Of a DNA stretch of 64,000 nt, positions 52,745 to 58,925 are shown in pieces. The notes under the pieces are model-generated. The model was not told where the DNA came from. It searched no databases and saw only the letters and a list, made by a program, of their open reading frames with translations. The stretch spans positions 16,955 through 80,954 of the forward strand of contig CAVYQA010000002.1 of NCBI GenBank assembly GCA_963770495.1, read 5' to 3'. Position 1 is the stretch's first letter. Each line of letters starts with the position of its first letter. The DNA comes from Chitinophagales bacterium. Lineage in GTDB: Bacteria; Bacteroidota; Bacteroidia; Chitinophagales; CAVYQA01. The translations under genes were made by a program, and so were the position numbers.

Positions 52745-53044
52745 TAACTGTTTTTTAGGTATCGCATTAACATTGACTTAACAAAAAATTAACATGATGA
52801 AAACAGCTACCAATCAACGTTTGACCACATTACGTAAAAATAAATTTAATTTTTTCGCAGGTGGAACACATGTTTACAAATTTTTATGAAAAAAAATAAT
52901 GTGGAAATGCCCAACTGTAATTTTTTTGAAATAACAAATAGAAAAAAATATTTTTTTACGAACAAGTTGTTTGCATCTTCGTCGCGTCATAAATAATATG
53001 ATAAATAGCATTAACTTACAGAACAATTAGTAAACATAATACGA

Positions 53045-54478
53045 ATGGCAAAAAATTACGAAGAGGTTTGGCAGTCCTGTTTAAAGATCATAAAGGACAA
53101 TGTTAACCTCCAGAGTTTTAAAACATGGTTTGAACCTATCAAGCCGGTAAAACTGGAAAGCAATGTACTCACCGTTCAGGTACCGAGCCAGTTTTTTTAT
53201 GAATGGATTGAAGAACATTACGTAACCCTTTTGCGCAAAACCGTAAAACGCGAGTTAGGTAATGATGCCCGCCTCGACTACAAAATAGTGATGGAAAACA
53301 GCAGTGGCGGTAAAGCACCTTTTACCGTTAATATCCCTACCTATAATACAAATACCAACAAAAACCCGGAGGTGGCGGCTCCTTTAATTTTAGGCACTAC
53401 TATAAAAAATCCGTTTGTTATACCGGGATTGAAAAAAGTGAATATTGATTCGCAGCTCAATCCAAATTACAGTTTTGAAAATTTTGTAGAAGGCGACTGC
53501 AACCGCCTGGCGCGTTCTGCCGGATTTGCAGTGAGCTCAAAACCGGGCGGCACCTCATTTAATCCTCTTGTAATTTATGGGGGCACAGGGTTGGGTAAAA
53601 CCCATCTTGCACAAGCTATCGGCAACCAGATAAAAATTAATTTCCCCACAAAAACAGTATTATATGTAACATCAGAAAAATTTACAAACCAGTTTATTGA
53701 TGCGCTTAAAACGAATTCCATAAACGACTTTGTTAATTTTTACCAGTTAGTGAATGTGCTGATACTGGACGACATACAATTCTTCGCCAACAAAGACAAA
53801 ACGCAAGACGTATTTTTCCACATTTTCAATCACCTGCACCAATCGGGCAAACAGCTTATCCTGACCTCCGACCGCTCACCGCGCGATTTGGAAGGCATGG
53901 AAGAACGCTTGCTATCACGATTCCGCTGGGGATTGAGCGCCGATTTGCAGGTGCCTGATTTTGAAACACGCATAGCTATTCTCGAAAAGAAAATGTACGC
54001 CGATGGTATTGAACTGCCGCGCGAAGTGGTCGAATTTGTAGCTTATAATATTACTACAAATGTGCGTGAGCTGGAAGGGGCATTAATATCATTGCTGGCA
54101 CAGGCATCGCTTAACAAGCGCGAGATAGATATTGATTTGGCGAAAAAAATCATCAAGAATTTCGTGAAGAGTTTTTCACGCGAAGTATCCATAGATTTTA
54201 TTCAGAAAACGGTTTGCGAATATTTTAGTGTCCCTTCTGACAAGCTACGCGAAAAAACCCGCAAGCGCGCTGTGGTACAGGCTCGCCAGCTTTCCATGTT
54301 CTTAGCCAAGCAGTTTACCAAAAACTCATTGAAAGTTATCGGCAAGCATTTTGGCGGGCGCGACCATAGCACGGTTATACACTCCTGCCAGGCAGTGCGC
54401 GACCTAATGGATACCGATAAAGAATTTAAGGATGCTGTGCAGGATTTGCAGAAAAAGATCCAGCTAAGCATTTCGTAG
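53045..54478 (+). CDS. dnaA: chromosomal replication initiator protein DnaA
   Basis: [10 protein letters not shown] Walker A, LILDDIQF Walker B, domain [18 protein letters not shown]. Confidence 0.95.
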   Translation: [477 protein letters not shown]

Positions 54479-54502
54479 GATAATCCTTGTTCTGGTTATA
54501 GA

Positions 54503-54548
54503 ACGGATGGCAGTTAATGCAATTTTATTAACTTTGTCATCCGTTTTT
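54503..54548 (+). terminator. compound hairpin plus T-run after dnaA
   Basis: acggatg (54503-54509) pairs with catccgt (54538-54544), with inner stem gttaat/attaac, followed by ttttt. Ends 8 nt before tRNA-Ser. Confidence 0.45.
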
Positions 54549-54555
54549 GATTTTT

Positions 54556-54645
54556 GGAGAGGTGCCTGAGTGGCCGAAAGGAGCGGTTTGCTAAACCGTC
54601 GTACGCCTTTAAAGCGTACCGGGAGTTCGAATCTCCCCCTCTCCG
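54556..54645 (+). tRNA. tRNA-Ser (anticodon GCU)
   Basis: Acceptor GGAGAGG/CCTCTCC, anticodon loop ttGCTaa, long variable arm gtacgc...gcgtac, T-arm gggagttcgaatctccc. Confidence 0.9.
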
Positions 54646-54646
54646 C

Positions 54647-54664
54647 GGTTGGGGTTTGGGTGTG
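54647..54664 (+). repeat. 18-bp arm of a perfect inverted repeat (GT-rich)
   Basis: ggttggggtttgggtgtg is the reverse complement of 55205-55222. Confidence 0.85.
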
Positions 54665-54694
54665 GTGGACGTGTGGGTGTGGTGGTTTAGATAA

Positions 54695-55069
54695 ATGTAT
54701 AAATATTTTTTGATGTTTGATTTTGAAAAATTGGAGGTTTACAAAATTGCCAGGGAAACAAACATTAAAGTACTTGAATTATTAGGAACCGATAAGAAAG
54801 TGGATTTAGATATTAAGAACCAGTGGAAAAGAGCCAGTATGAGTATGGTGCTCAATTTAGCTGAGGGTACAGGACGTATGACAGCATCTGATAAAAAACA
54901 TTTTTACACCATCTCTCGTGGCAGTGTATTTGAATGTGCGGCTATTTTAGATACCGTGCAGGGCATGAATTTAATCACTGATAAGCAATACCAGGAGTTT
55001 TATTCTAAGTATGAGCAAATCTCTAAAATGCTGCTTGGGATGTTTCGTAGCTTTAATAAGGAAACTTAA
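54695..55069 (+). CDS. four-helix-bundle protein (23S rRNA intervening-sequence protein family); start possibly at 54713
   Basis: FDFEKLEVYKIARE..., NLAEGTGR, TISRGSVFECAAIL are typical of the S23-IVS four-helix-bundle family. Confidence 0.85.
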   Translation: MYKYFLMFDFEKLEVYKIARETNIKVLELLGTDKKVDLDIKNQWKRASMSMVLNLAEGTGRMTASDKKHFYTISRGSVFECAAILDTVQGMNLITDKQYQEFYSKYEQISKMLLGMFRSFNKET

Positions 55070-55204
55070 TCGTATTTTCACACCCGCAAACATATTATAT
55101 AAACAAATTTCACACATCAATCACACTCACACACCAACCCAAACCTGATCATTCACACCTCCATCACCCACACCCAAACCCAATTGTTACACCTCAATCA
55201 CACT

Positions 55205-55222
55205 CACACCCAAACCCCAACC
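55205..55222 (+). repeat. 18-bp arm of a perfect inverted repeat (CA-rich)
   Basis: cacacccaaaccccaacc. It is preceded by two degenerate CA-rich copies (55116-55147, 55151-55186). Confidence 0.85.
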
Positions 55223-55227
55223 CAACC

Positions 55228-55302
55228 CGGGGTGTAGCGCAGCCCGGTTAGCGCGCCTGCTTTGGGAGCAGGATGTCGCAGGTTCGAATCCTGCCACCCC
55301 GA
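55228..55302 (+). tRNA. tRNA-Pro (anticodon UGG)
   Basis: Acceptor CGGGGTG/CACCCCG, anticodon stem cctgc/gcagg with loop ttTGGga, T-arm gcaggttcgaatcctgc. Confidence 0.9.
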
Positions 55303-55310
55303 CACAGTAG

Positions 55311-55340
55311 AAAATCCTTCGGCAAACCGAAGGATTTTTT
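55311..55340 (+). terminator. Rho-independent terminator after tRNA-Pro
   Basis: aaaatccttcgg caaa ccgaaggatttttt: 12-bp stem, 4-nt loop, T-run. Confidence 0.7.
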
Positions 55341-55404
55341 CATTTAGGTACACCTGAAAACCATTGCAACTGTTATATTTGCTAAAAGATTAAAATATAT
55401 TTCT

Positions 55405-56070
55405 ATGTCAATTAAAAAAGAAACACTTCAGTTTCTGAAAGAACTGGATAAAAACAACAACCGCGACTGGTTCAATAAAAACAAAGATAAATTTATTGCA
55501 GCCAATGAAAACTTCATTCAGTTTGTGCAATCGCTGATTGGGGAGGTGGCTAAATTTGATAAATCAATAACCGGGCTTGATGCAAAAGATTGCGTGTTCC
55601 GTATTTACAGGGATACCCGTTTTTCGAGAGACAAAACGCCCTATAAAACGCAATTTTCTGCTACACTGATGGGAAAGGGTGCCGGCTGTGGCGTTGCGGG
55701 TTATTATATACGCTTGCAACCTGGCAAAACGTTTTTGGCGGGCGGCTCTCACATGGCAGAGCCGCAAAACCTGAAAGCCATTCGTGAAGAAATTAGCGAG
55801 AATGGAAAAGAGTTTCTGAAAATTATTAATGATAAAACATTCAAAACTAATTTCTCCATTGAGGGCGAAAAACTGGTTAAAGTTCCGCAGGGCTTTGATA
55901 AAGAAGACTCCATGAGCGAATACCTGAAATATAAAGAGCTTATCATTCAACACACGGTTGATGATAAAACGGTGCTTTCAAATGATTTCACTTATTACTG
56001 CGGGAAAATATTTAAAACAATGGTTCCGTTTAACTCATTCGTAAATAAACCCGTGATGGCTCTTAATTAA
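55405..56070 (+). CDS. DUF2461 (TIGR02453) family protein
   Basis: FLKELDKNNNRDWFNKNKDKF... and RIYRDTRFSRDKTPYKT blocks. Confidence 0.85.
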   Translation: MSIKKETLQFLKELDKNNNRDWFNKNKDKFIAANENFIQFVQSLIGEVAKFDKSITGLDAKDCVFRIYRDTRFSRDKTPYKTQFSATLMGKGAGCGVAGYYIRLQPGKTFLAGGSHMAEPQNLKAIREEISENGKEFLKIINDKTFKTNFSIEGEKLVKVPQGFDKEDSMSEYLKYKELIIQHTVDDKTVLSNDFTYYCGKIFKTMVPFNSFVNKPVMALN

Positions 56071-56186
56071 AGATTCAAACACCTCCATGCCTCTATAATA
56101 TTAATCCCCGCCAAAATGAATATTTCGGGTAATATTCCATAATTTTATGCTCACTCTATTCCGTTATTTTAAAAAGTTCTTTAAGA

Positions 56187-58925
56187 ATGAGAAAACCCGT
56201 ACTATGTCTTTTAAGTTTCGTCTTTCTATTTGCATCAACTTTCTTAGTAAAAGCCGGTAATCCCCCCGTTACTAAATGGACGGTAAAAAATCCTTTTGAG
56301 CAAAAAGTGTTTATTGAAAATAAAGGACAATATAACCTGCCCGATAAAGCACCATCCAAAAACATTTTGTTTGGAGCGCAGCTGGATGGATTGAATTATT
56401 ATTTTACCTCAACCGGAATATGGATAACACATTATGTGCAGGTTAAAAGCAATAATAAAGAGTCAACCCAATTGCAATTGCCAAATGCAAAGCACGTGCA
56501 GGAATTCCATCAAATTAATTTTATAGCTGCCAATTCATCGGCTGAAATTATCGGCGATAACAAGGTAAAGCAATATTACAATTTCAGGGGAGAAGGTAAT
56601 TCAAACATAAAAGCATCTGCCTACCAAAAAATTATATACAGAAATTTATATCCCGGCATTGATATGGAATTTTATTTCCCTGAAGACAAGCTGGGTTTTG
56701 AATATTCGTTTATTGTGCACCCGGGAGCGGATATTTCGCAGATAAAAATGCAATACCCGTTAAGTGAAAGAATCGCTCTTACTGCCGAAGGCAACATTAC
56801 GATACAATCAACTTTTGGTGAGTTTACCGACCACGCACCTGTTGCGAATCAACAGGGATTGCTTACACCCATTACCTGTTCATTCAGATTAAATGAAGGC
56901 GAAGTAGATTTTAGTGCAGGTAATTATAATAAAAACAAAGATTTAATAATAGACCCCTGGACATCTATTCCGTCATTTCCATTAAGCAGAAGTGACCGCG
57001 CTTATGATTTAGACTGGGATAATGCCGGCAACTGCTATGTCTATGGCGGGTCAGGGCAGTATGAAGAATATCCTTTGTATCTTTTAAAGTATGATAATAC
57101 AGGCAAGTTGTTATGGTCAATTCCCATACATGATTATTATAGCGAAGATTATGGAACAGAACTGTATGGAGATTTTTGTGTAGACAAAAATTCGCAATCC
57201 ATTTACATTTCCCAGGGCGCTAATGTTTTACATGGAGCAGAAATAATTAAGCTTAACCGGGCAGGTGCAATAATTGATTCTTCAGGTGGAAATATAAATA
57301 TGACGGCAATGTGGCGCATTGCATTTACCAGCCAATATAACGAGCTTATAGGAGCGGGCGGCGCATATCCAAATAGTCCGGCTGCCACTGCCATGTACGC
57401 TGATACTAATTTAACTAACGGAACAATTGTGTATGTAAATACCCCGGCTAATCCGTTTCATTATATGTGGGGTATAACGCTGGATAATTTTGGTAATTGC
57501 TATATGGCAATAAGCGGACTAACAGCAGGTGATACTACCGGTAATGACATGTTTAAATTACCGCTGTCTACTCTTTCACCAACATCATGGGAAGTAAATG
57601 ACGGATATGAGTTTCACATCTTCACACCCGGTTATATTACTGAAAATGGAGGTAATGGTTATAATGGAATGACTGTTAATGATACCAACCTCTATACCTA
57701 CGATAGCTATACGCTGAAAAAATGGGCTACAACAAACGGCACATTGCTAAATAGCATTAATATAGACGGTAATAACGGCACCCCAAGTAATATTTACTGG
57801 GGAGGAATAACCTCTGACAGTTGTGGTGACATTCTCCTCGGTTATCTTGACACCGTTAAGCAATATACCGACAACTTAACTCTTATAAATTATATCATTG
57901 CACACGATACTATTTATGACTTAAGCATGGGAAACAATAACATATTATATGCCTGTGGCGCAGACTTTGTATCTGCAATTGATGTATCACCTCCACGTGT
58001 AATTATAGACAGCCCCGGCACTTGTTTAGGAACTGGTGTAGCGCTTAAACCATCGGGTGGTAATAGTTATAACTGGTTTCCTTCTGCAGGATTAAATACC
58101 ACAACCGGCGATAGCGTTATTGCTAATCCATCCGTTACTACTACATATACCATAGTTGGTTTTGAAAACGTGAGTTGTCCTGATACGGTTCAATCAGTTG
58201 TAACCATTAAACCACTGCCAACAATAATAGCCCCGCCGGCATCAATTTGTTATGGAAATAGCACAGTACTGACAGCAAGCGGAGCAGTTTCCTATACATG
58301 GGCACCGGCAACAGGCTTAAATATTACAACAGGAGACAGTGTAACTGCCAACCCATCTATAACCACCACTTATACAGTAACAGGTTTGGACACTGATGGC
58401 TGTACGGCATCAGTTTCTGATATAGTGACTGTAACAACTTCTCCTAATAAACCAACCTTCAGTCAACATGAAGATACTCTTATTTCAAGCTCCTCACGTG
58501 ACAATCAATGGTATCGTAATGACTCGTTACTGGTAAATGACACCAGTCAAGACTTGATAATTACCGTCTTGGGCGAATATTTGGTAGTTGTATCTAACGA
58601 GGCTGATGGTTGCAGCACATCGTCAGATTCGATGAATATTAGTTCACTGACAGGCGTAAATCAACTATCAGCTATCAGTGGACAGTTATCGGTTTATCCT
58701 AATCCATTTAACAGCACAATTTATGTGACAATAAATCCATCGGCGCAATATGTGAACGACTGGAGTTTGCAGATTACGGATGTGCTGGGCAGAATTATTT
58801 ATTCAAGAATATCATTAAACTATAGTAATGAGATCAACCTTTCAAAAATACCATCGGGGGTATATTTCATAACCGTTACAAATGAGAAGGGACGAGCGGT
58901 GTTCCCTATAATCAGGCAGGAATAA
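56187..58925 (+). CDS. T9SS cargo protein: N-terminal conserved module, beta-propeller-like region, 2 Ig-like Cys-containing repeats, type-A CTD
   Basis: FIENKGQY N-terminal module. Repeats ...GLNTTTGDSVIANPSVTTTYTI.... CTD LSVYPNPFNSTIYV...IPSGVYFITV. Confidence 0.85.
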   Translation: MRKPVLCLLSFVFLFASTFLVKAGNPPVTKWTVKNPFEQKVFIENKGQYNLPDKAPSKNILFGAQLDGLNYYFTSTGIWITHYVQVKSNNKESTQLQLPNAKHVQEFHQINFIAANSSAEIIGDNKVKQYYNFRGEGNSNIKASAYQKIIYRNLYPGIDMEFYFPEDKLGFEYSFIVHPGADISQIKMQYPLSERIALTAEGNITIQSTFGEFTDHAPVANQQGLLTPITCSFRLNEGEVDFSAGNYNKNKDLIIDPWTSIPSFPLSRSDRAYDLDWDNAGNCYVYGGSGQYEEYPLYLLKYDNTGKLLWSIPIHDYYSEDYGTELYGDFCVDKNSQSIYISQGANVLHGAEIIKLNRAGAIIDSSGGNINMTAMWRIAFTSQYNELIGAGGAYPNSPAATAMYADTNLTNGTIVYVNTPANPFHYMWGITLDNFGNCYMAISGLTAGDTTGNDMFKLPLSTLSPTSWEVNDGYEFHIFTPGYITENGGNGYNGMTVNDTNLYTYDSYTLKKWATTNGTLLNSINIDGNNGTPSNIYWGGITSDSCGDILLGYLDTVKQYTDNLTLINYIIAHDTIYDLSMGNNNILYACGADFVSAIDVSPPRVIIDSPGTCLGTGVALKPSGGNSYNWFPSAGLNTTTGDSVIANPSVTTTYTIVGFENVSCPDTVQSVVTIKPLPTIIAPPASICYGNSTVLTASGAVSYTWAPATGLNITTGDSVTANPSITTTYTVTGLDTDGCTASVSDIVTVTTSPNKPTFSQHEDTLISSSSRDNQWYRNDSLLVNDTSQDLIITVLGEYLVVVSNEADGCSTSSDSMNISSLTGVNQLSAISGQLSVYPNPFNSTIYVTINPSAQYVNDWSLQITDVLGRIIYSRISLNYSNEINLSKIPSGVYFITVTNEKGRAVFPIIRQE

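Follow-up and report, generated by a model that had tools for sequence, protein, structure and literature searches.

A Protein Gene Enclosed between Two tRNA Genes

The DNA considered here is a stretch of 64,000 nucleotides (nt) from a Chitinophagales bacterium (GenBank assembly GCA_963770495.1, contig CAVYQA010000002.1, positions 16,955 to 80,954 of the forward strand), hereafter called the window and numbered from its first letter. Between dnaA and a DUF2461 gene it carries a compact unit, in which the gene for a small four-helix-bundle protein (PF05635/TIGR02436) sits between tRNA-Ser(GCU) and tRNA-Pro(UGG) and is enclosed by an inverted repeat that runs up to both of them (Table 1). A first-pass annotation of the window had likened this arrangement to the intervening sequences (IVSs) of 23S rRNA, which are closed by a stem and excised by RNase III, and had proposed that such an architecture had been transplanted into a tRNA spacer.

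The spacer between the two tRNAs is 581 nt long, and the arms at its ends, GGTTGGGGTTTGGGTGTG (54647-54664) and CACACCCAAACCCCAACC (55205-55222), are 100% complementary over 18 nt, just as had been read at first pass. An 18-nt perfect match was obtained in none of 3000 arm shuffles that kept composition (maximum 16, mean 8.6), so the inverted repeat of the window lies beyond chance. The repeat also abuts the tRNAs as described, starting 1-2 nt past tRNA-Ser and ending 5 nt short of tRNA-Pro. The 3' side of the spacer is a 124-nt C/A-rich region with a tandem duplicate of the arm inside it, and the suspected extension of the G/T and C/A pairing was supported by prediction, in that 54665-54686 is expected to pair with 55157-55176. 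When 54640-55230 was folded as RNA, the terminal stem formed part of both the minimum free energy and the centroid structures (z -2.5), and the duplex predicted by RNAduplex between the two spacers flanking the open reading frame (ORF) had an energy of -64 kcal/mol (z -4.5). The hairpins that the annotation had placed after dnaA and after tRNA-Pro are both present, each followed by a T-run. Searches of the window by tblastn and with a hidden Markov model found no second PF05635 gene, a scan of 53000-57000 around the cassette found no rRNA, and Rfam, applied to the window spacer at E<=1 and to 20 loci at gathering thresholds, returned tRNAs and chance matches only.

Table 1. Positions of the features of the tRNA-Ser/tRNA-Pro unit and its immediate surroundings in the window.
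Feature	Position	Strand	Remarks
dnaA stop	54478		
Terminator-like hairpin and T-run after dnaA	54502-54547	+	Arms 54502-54512 and 54535-54545, 91% complementary; the loop holds the promoter box
Bacteroidota sigma-A -7 box, TAACTTTG (TAnnTTTG)	54529-54536	+	27 nt upstream of tRNA-Ser; putative promoter of the whole unit
tRNA-Ser(GCU), without encoded CCA	54556-54646	+	ARAGORN; Rfam 54.1 bits, with the Rfam end at 54645
5' arm, G/T tract (24 G, 14 T, 1 A, 1 C) with a period of ~6	54647-54686	+	Perfect core 54647-54664; autocorrelation 0.67 at lag 6
Four-helix-bundle gene (PF05635/TIGR02436), 118 amino acids	54713-55069	+	Conserved start MFDFEKL; maximal ORF from 54695
C/A-rich repeat, copy 1	55104-55145	+	Tandem copy of the terminal 3' arm, with 83% identity to 55181-55222 over 42 nt; alternative pairing partner
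Inner C/A-rich segment	55152-55181	+	Predicted to pair with 54652-54686; 14 nt perfect between 54652-54665 and 55168-55181
Terminal 3' arm, C/A-rich	55181-55227	+	Perfect core 55205-55222, which stops 5 nt short of tRNA-Pro
tRNA-Pro(UGG), without encoded CCA	55228-55303	+	ARAGORN; Rfam 70.3 bits
Intrinsic-terminator-like 12-bp perfect hairpin and T-run	55311-55345	+	AAAATCCTTCGG / CCGAAGGATTTT, then TTCATTT; closes the unit
DUF2461 gene	from 55405		

The Four-Helix-Bundle Protein

The PF05635/TIGR02436 ORF is the sole gene between the arms, as the first-pass annotation had stated, but the length of 124 amino acids assigned to its product was too great: every homologue starts with MFDFEKL, which corresponds to the ATG at 54713, and the protein is therefore one of 118 amino acids. 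It scored far above the curated cut-offs of both family models (86.2 bits versus 33.8 for Pfam PF05635, with E 2e-24; 73.8 bits versus 24 for TIGR02436) and matched the sequence of PDB 2gsc at E 3e-8. An AlphaFold2 model of the monomer, with a predicted local distance difference test score of 92, is a four-helix bundle (helices at residues 4-26, 32-50, 58-84 and 90-113), and its best superpositions by Foldseek were with BT_0352 (2rld) and XCC0516 (2gsc), at a template modelling (TM) score of 0.8, and with Avd, a protein of diversity-generating retroelements (DGRs). Comparison with its closest relative, at locus L022 of the survey described below (95% amino acid identity), gave a ratio of nonsynonymous to synonymous substitution rates (dN/dS) of 0.05 at a dS of 0.52; the protein is under strong purifying selection. 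At another locus, L001 (3001-3354), the PF05635 ORF is frameshifted after 35 codons in the metagenome-assembled genome (MAG) while its arms are among the best paired of all (-72 kcal/mol), reflecting either an assembly error or a pseudogene whose stem has been kept.

Conservation of the tRNA-Gene-tRNA Module

A scan of one genome per species yielded 19 Bacteroidota loci, and a metagenome scan added 80 more (individual loci are given L numbers). In 17 of the 19, tRNA-Ser(GCU), the gene and tRNA-Pro(UGG) follow one another on one strand, and these loci are distributed over Chitinophagales, Cytophagales (Cyclobacteriaceae, Agaribacillus) and Bacteroidales. One carrier of the module, at L011, is the culturable Agaribacillus aureus BMA12. 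A census of context was taken over the 95 loci with a recognisable ORF. The Ser(GCU)/Pro(UGG) arrangement accounted for 63 of them, with one further locus having Ser(GCU) on the opposite strand; Pro(UGG) also followed the gene at 11 loci with no tRNA detected upstream and at five where the upstream sequence was too short. The remainder comprised Val(GAC)/Pro(GGG) (five loci), Ser(GCU)/Arg(UCU) (five), a promoter and Arg(UCU) (one), and Ser(GCU) on contigs that end too soon on the other side (four). Wherever there was enough downstream sequence (91/91 loci), a tRNA gene on the same strand lay directly 3' of the PF05635 gene, an invariance of orientation on which an inverton was rejected. Neighbouring protein genes vary from locus to locus, so the conserved unit is the tRNA-gene-tRNA module itself, and the arms accompany the gene into the Val(GAC)/Pro(GGG) and promoter/Arg(UCU) settings. 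Inheritance of the module across the phylum, together with the strong purifying selection on its protein, is at odds with a recent transplantation, and no sign of the mobility that had been suggested was seen at the window locus.

Several loci show rearrangements of the tRNAs themselves. The 361 nt from the ORF stop (1854) to tRNA-Pro in L057 contain two extra tandem units, each of a CA arm and a tRNA-Pro-like sequence broken by small inserted hairpins (cccgacttcgtcggg), with an intact tRNA-Pro after them, and L074 has a similarly broken copy of tRNA-Pro(GGG). At L049, L050, L060, L061 and L094, a tRNA-Ser 3' end (aatccccctctctccgc) precedes the GT arm 150-230 nt upstream of the ORF, and either the body of the tRNA-Ser is disrupted or a second copy of its 3' part follows an insert of ~125 nt, which may represent insertion into tRNA-Ser or an integration scar there. 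Assemblies at L009, L010, L012, L021 and many metagenome contigs end in or beside the arms or at tRNA-Pro. Arms made of simple repeats probably break short-read assemblies, and the locus may thus be under-represented or truncated in MAGs.

Co-Evolving Arms of a Predicted Stem

Most loci have a G/T-rich tract after tRNA-Ser and a C/A-rich one before tRNA-Pro, with a period of 6, units that vary (GGGTGT, GGGTTT, GAGTGT) and lengths from 20 to >100 nt. Of 90 loci whose two spacers were paired by RNAduplex, 62 had energies below -25 kcal/mol, and 40 had z < -3 against shuffles of the 3' side, the latter being a harsh null because GT and CA compositions pair well anyway. Strong stems begin 0-6 nt past tRNA-Ser and end 0-5 nt ahead of tRNA-Pro. 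A further comparison was made over 32 non-redundant armed loci, whose arms were permuted among loci 10,000 times: the summed complementarity of each locus's own arms was 773, compared to 560 +/- 20 (maximum 655) for permuted pairs (p<1e-4). Own arms fit each other better than they fit those of other loci, i.e., the arms co-evolve. In places even irregularities that are not part of the repeats are mirrored, e.g., GGGGCGAGAGTGTGG by CCACACTCTCGCTCC in L016 and CTGTGTG by CACACAG in L001. The polarity of the arms is never reversed, GT being always 5' and CA always 3'.

Such tracts are peculiar to the cassette. None that is GT-only or CA-only occurs elsewhere in the 64-kb window, and in 229 kb of flanking sequence outside the cassettes there is one, in L003, which is coding; a genome-wide repeat family was rejected on these counts. 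A G-quadruplex as the conserved feature was put aside, in that many arms (GAGTTTG, GAGTGTG) have no G-runs and are complementary nonetheless.

The inverted repeat holds up at homologous loci in part: it recurs, with co-evolving arms, in at least three Bacteroidota orders, but about a third of the loci are stemless. Among 78 non-redundant proteins, the stem was strong at 31 loci, weak at 20 and absent from 27, and two stemless loci, L053 and L063, have a C/A remnant on the 3' side only. The pattern of stems and remnants fits an ancestral stem with repeated loss.

Other simple repeats were found around these operons. Complementary pairs in L079 (TTCACT/AGTGAA and TTCGCT/AGCGAA) match 1251-1285 with 1426-1458 and 599-628 and 1084-1137 with 1470-1498, the two sets together bracketing tRNA-Ser and the region between this locus's two PF05635 genes, which suggests nested long-range helices within one precursor. 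Tandem repeats of 7-8 nt are common around the tRNA operons (GAGCTTA, CAGTCAA, CACCAGTT, GTAACGC), occurring upstream of tRNA-Ser in L006 and L009, after the stop codon in L057 and L061, and also in L070, L058 and L068. They resemble the short tandemly repeated repetitive (STRR) heptamers of cyanobacteria.

Transcription Signals

A sigma-70 promoter scan gave no match, as would be expected for Bacteroidota promoters, and a simple terminator scan missed the tRNA-Pro terminator; the TAnnTTTG motif and direct reading of the sequence were used instead. Of 18 loci, 17 have the box 17-37 nt ahead of tRNA-Ser, and in none of the 18 does one occur between the 5' arm and the ATG. Loci that have no tRNA-Ser (L003, L058, L068, L070, L083) have the box directly before the 5' arm or leader. 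In the window, terminator and promoter overlap within ~50 nt, with the box inside the loop of the hairpin distal to dnaA, and this layout is kept in the close relative L022. Because there is a -7 box before tRNA-Ser, none before the ORF and a terminator after tRNA-Pro, we infer that tRNA-Ser, the ORF and tRNA-Pro are co-transcribed.

Other Genes of the Family

The first-pass annotation had raised the prospect that flanking repeats might accompany other four-helix-bundle genes, and the same arm-ORF-arm anatomy was indeed found in other contexts. L079 contains a second gene, of the mainstream PF05635 type, and this gene and its homologues from other assemblies have complementary arms with a repeat unit unique to each locus and a 7-nt period, which recalls the heptamers of the Coxiella 23S IVS. 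Two such cassettes lie on the opposite strand to both of their neighbours, L105 1345-1961 (arms of 85 nt, 79-87% complementary, -130 kcal/mol) and L107 1511-2124 ((TTCGCTN)n versus (AGCGAAN)n, 65 nt, 86%). Others are set within or beside ordinary operons: between cysD and cysN (L108 1472-1934; 25 nt, 88%), in the hut operon between FTCD and hutI (L109 1350-1950 and L111 885-1427; about 21-45 nt), after a phosphoglucomutase gene (L113 911-1423; about 32 nt, 78%) and between exbB and exbD (L114 945-1412 and L115; 31 nt, 84%). The 5' arms have G>C in almost all, and the arms often adjoin the stop and start codons of the neighbouring genes. A distant member from Saccharibacteria (L020 2831-3300; 31% identity) is located between rplB and rpsS in the S10 operon, with weaker arms in the form of periodic ACGAAT/ATTCGT flanks. 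No relatives turned up when viral contigs were scanned with a profile of the mainstream PF05635 type.

PF05635 genes are also present in insertion sequences of 16S and 23S rRNA in Candidate Phyla Radiation (CPR) bacteria, and 18 were recorded in cas loci, e.g., one between cmr3 and cmr2 (PMC3936711). Searches of the non-subscription literature found no description of a tRNA-embedded PF05635 gene, or of repeat arms around members of the family outside rRNA.

Comparison with Known Systems

The closest parallel is with the ORF-bearing 23S IVSs of Leptospira, Coxiella and Brucella. There, as here, an insert of about 430-580 nt with a PF05635 ORF on the sense strand has terminal inverted repeats, 18-60 bp long, that close it, has short tandem repeats of variable copy number in the region of the 5' arm, and resides in the precursor of a highly transcribed stable RNA (PMC4990558). 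The Coxiella IVS is 428 nt long with a terminal stem of 28 bp cut by RNase III in mid-stem, and has three to four tandem GACAGAT heptamers upstream of the ATG of its S23p ORF, the number varying by strain, with the 5' RNase III site at the first of them (PMC4990558). The differences are equally clear. The host site is a tRNA-tRNA spacer rather than an rRNA gene (for IVSs, helix 9, 25 or 45 of 23S, or 16S), the units are hexamers with G/T set against C/A rather than heptamers, and distribution is phylum-wide and syntenic (63 Ser/Pro loci in several orders) while that of IVSs is sporadic and strain-variable, which suggests horizontal transfer; the ORF has a dN/dS of 0.05 whereas that of Coxiella is decaying, and excision by RNase III without religation, a mark of IVSs, is here a prediction from sequence. 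With complementary termini that would form a stable stem and a sense S23p ORF preceded by short tandem repeats, the tRNA-spacer element agrees with the Coxiella IVS subtype in all traits visible at the level of sequence, the host site excepted. The likeness drawn at first pass thus survives, in the form of a long terminal stem around a PF05635 ORF, flush between tRNAs and recurring at homologous loci, and on these features the element is an IVS-type cassette outside rRNA.

The processing stems that flank 16S and 23S rRNA, which RNase III cuts, are similar in that there is long-range pairing around a long segment, in a precursor that also contains tRNAs, and in fast evolution with compensation (PMC6582327). 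Here, by contrast, the mRNA for a 118-amino-acid protein is enclosed, and the arms are two-letter tandem repeats. Co-transcripts of tRNAs and mRNAs are exemplified by the thrU-tyrU-glyT-thrT-tufB and tyrT-tpr operons of E. coli and by the tRNA punctuation model of mitochondria. In these too, tRNA processing enzymes free coding RNA from a precursor, although no stem closes the mRNA there, while here the mRNA lies between two tRNAs, bracketed by a duplex. The Correia elements of Neisseria are miniature inverted-repeat transposable elements (MITEs) with inverted repeats that, when transcribed, become targets of RNase III cleavage; they likewise sit inside transcription units and yield RNase III sites on RNA folding. 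They are, however, multicopy and ORF-less, with conserved terminal inverted repeats and TA target duplications, whereas the cassette here is single-copy per window, bears an ORF and has variable tandem-repeat arms. A MITE or transposon was rejected, the cassette being unique in the window, the arms differing between close relatives and no transposase being adjacent. Lastly, Avd of DGRs has a homologous four-helix-bundle fold (Foldseek TM about 0.8 to 8ub7/4dwl; PMC10053308), but sequence identity to it is about 7% and the neighbours here are dnaA and DUF2461. A DGR was rejected: there is no reverse transcriptase or template/variable repeat adjacent, and the sole repeats are the arms.

A Model for the Unit, and Its Alternatives

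We favour, with a probability of roughly 0.6, a model in which the unit is a co-transcribed tRNA-mRNA-tRNA precursor with a stem-looped insert and an entry site for RNase III. Transcription would proceed from the promoter through tRNA-Ser(GCU), the G/U-rich 5' arm, the PF05635 mRNA, the C/A-rich 3' arm and tRNA-Pro(UGG) to the terminator. The 3' arm, once transcribed, would zip onto the waiting 5' arm to give a terminal duplex of 20-60 bp flush with both tRNAs, so that the coding insert of ~450 nt would be looped out and tRNA-Ser and tRNA-Pro brought side by side. Like the terminal stem of the ORF-bearing 23S IVSs, this duplex would be the site at which RNase III enters and processes the stem, with RNase Z and RNase P trimming the tRNAs at the flush boundaries. 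The freed mRNA would have paired ends, which we would expect to stabilise it in place of the missing 5' triphosphate and 3' terminator hairpin. Slippage in the tandem units (period 6 here, 7 elsewhere) would alter the length of the arms and keep their register, and the two-letter alphabet of each arm would keep it from misfolding, whether alone or against the tRNAs. Simple inheritance may account for the invariant polarity, or the polarity may reflect avoidance of Rho: a C-rich, G-poor arm waiting unpaired resembles a Rho loading site, and at the 3' side, where it would pair at once, such loading would be avoided.

A number of observations weigh against this model. The stem is dispensable, the 27 stemless loci, often with spacers of 22-50 nt, being scattered through the protein tree, and even in L022 it is imperfect, with uncompensated changes and arms that have diverged far more than the ORF. 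The motif pattern of an operon with a single promoter fits the window and most loci, but 11 of 77 have a small GGGA...TCCC hairpin followed by U6-9 between the 5' arm and the ATG (15-22 nt before the latter; L002, L004, L005, L007, L014-L016, L064, L077, L089 and L090, a Bacteroidales clade), which could be a terminator or attenuator ahead of the ORF, setting the ratio of tRNA to mRNA. In L005 and L007 there is also a candidate second promoter, downstream of the stop codon and ahead of the CA arm. RNase P and RNase Z could be obstructed, instead of aided, by a duplex that reaches the ends of the tRNAs. Furthermore, in Coxiella the RNase III cut takes away the ribosome-binding site, and breakdown of the excised RNA is rapid, a fate that would be odd here, because the gene is under strong selection.

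An alternative, which we regard as rather unlikely, is that the stem serves for end protection or insulation, with RNase Z and RNase P freeing the mRNA and RNase III having no productive role. The 5' monophosphate and 3' OH would then lie in a blunt duplex, out of reach of RNases that depend on the 5' end and of 3' exonucleases. The stem runs right to the cleavage sites of both tRNAs, endonucleolytic 3' processing is to be expected of tRNAs with no encoded CCA, the conservation of the ORF argues for a translated and stable mRNA, and the ATG and AT-rich leader are outside the stem, all of which is consistent with protection. Near-perfect duplexes of 20-85 bp are, on the other hand, canonical substrates of RNase III, which cuts the homologous stems of IVSs (PMC4990558), and the gene is evidently still expressed at loci that have no stem to protect it.

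It is improbable that the arms act at the level of DNA and not as RNA pairing partners, serving a cassette that moves or inverts as its terminal inverted repeats or sites of recombination. The occurrence of arm-ORF-arm in Ser/Pro, Val/Pro(GGG) and promoter/Arg contexts would suit such a cassette, as would the mainstream PF05635 cassettes wedged into the cysD-cysN, hut and exbB-exbD operons and the PF05635 genes of cas operons (PMC3936711) and CPR rRNA insertion sites. Yet no transposase or recombinase gene is adjacent, close relatives differ in the length, sequence and unit of their arms with no end sequence conserved, the window holds no other copy, no inversion was seen among the 91 co-oriented loci, and the tRNA module was inherited across orders.

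We consider it very improbable, too, that the arms are neutral microsatellites, expanded by slippage and kept alike by gene conversion between the inverted copies. Tandem units of 6-7 nt with a fast turnover are what such a process would leave, the 3' arm is tandemly duplicated in the window, L029 and L057, many lineages have lost the stem and kept the gene, and other simple repeats are plentiful in the same spacers. Neutral sequence would, however, be scrambled at the dS values across which the arms have been kept in at least three orders, they always directly adjoin the tRNA ends, with unvarying polarity, and other PF05635 subfamilies and the Coxiella IVS arrive at the same architecture with independent units.

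That the periodic arms are primarily binding sites of the presumably pentameric four-helix-bundle protein, for autoregulation or ribonucleoprotein assembly, with the duplex secondary, is again very improbable: the fold does match the pentameric S23p proteins and Avd (8ub7, 4dwl), Avd does act in an RNA-protein complex with reverse transcriptase, and arms of 3-12 short periodic units do lie beside the gene family in every context seen, but the units are wholly different between loci with similar proteins, which argues against sequence-specific recognition, and binding would in any case be compatible with a stem-closed precursor. None of these alternatives accounts as well as the stem-looped, RNase III-processed precursor for the combination of flush placement, co-evolution and recurrence across families.

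Implications for the PF05635 Family

To our knowledge, 23S IVSs and their S23p ORFs have gone without explanation for about 30 years, no function is known for the four-helix-bundle family outside the DGR protein Avd, and a protein gene fixed between two essential tRNAs is rare in bacteria. The family as a whole is very large, a single search having yielded >1,300 close relatives of the present subfamily alone. The presence of the same stem-closed, repeat-armed anatomy both in ordinary operons and in a tRNA operon that spans the phylum turns what had been a curiosity of a few pathogens into a general architecture, and the layout points to a general way for the PF05635 family to embed itself in busy transcripts.

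A broader proposal, which we put forward tentatively and hold to be clearly less probable than the model for the tRNA unit, is that PF05635 genes in general travel in self-insulating, IVS-like RNA cassettes that colonise all kinds of transcribed spacer, with the ORF between complementary arms of period 6-7. The stem would restore the topology of the host transcript and mark the insert for RNase III, thereby keeping the insertion silent, and the copy between tRNA-Ser and tRNA-Pro would be an old member that has been domesticated and become fixed in Bacteroidota. The protein, presumably a pentamer, may work on the periodic arms, or it may help the cassette to spread by partnering a reverse transcriptase, as its relative Avd does. 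If this were true, the hosts of such cassettes would include 23S and 16S rRNA helices, tRNA operons, ribosomal-protein operons and ordinary operons such as cysDN, hut, exbBD and cas. Co-transcription, processing that depends on the stem and silent insertion are what the model would lead one to expect. For annotation, caution is called for, since PF05635 genes inside cas or other operons may be passengers and not functional partners of the genes around them.

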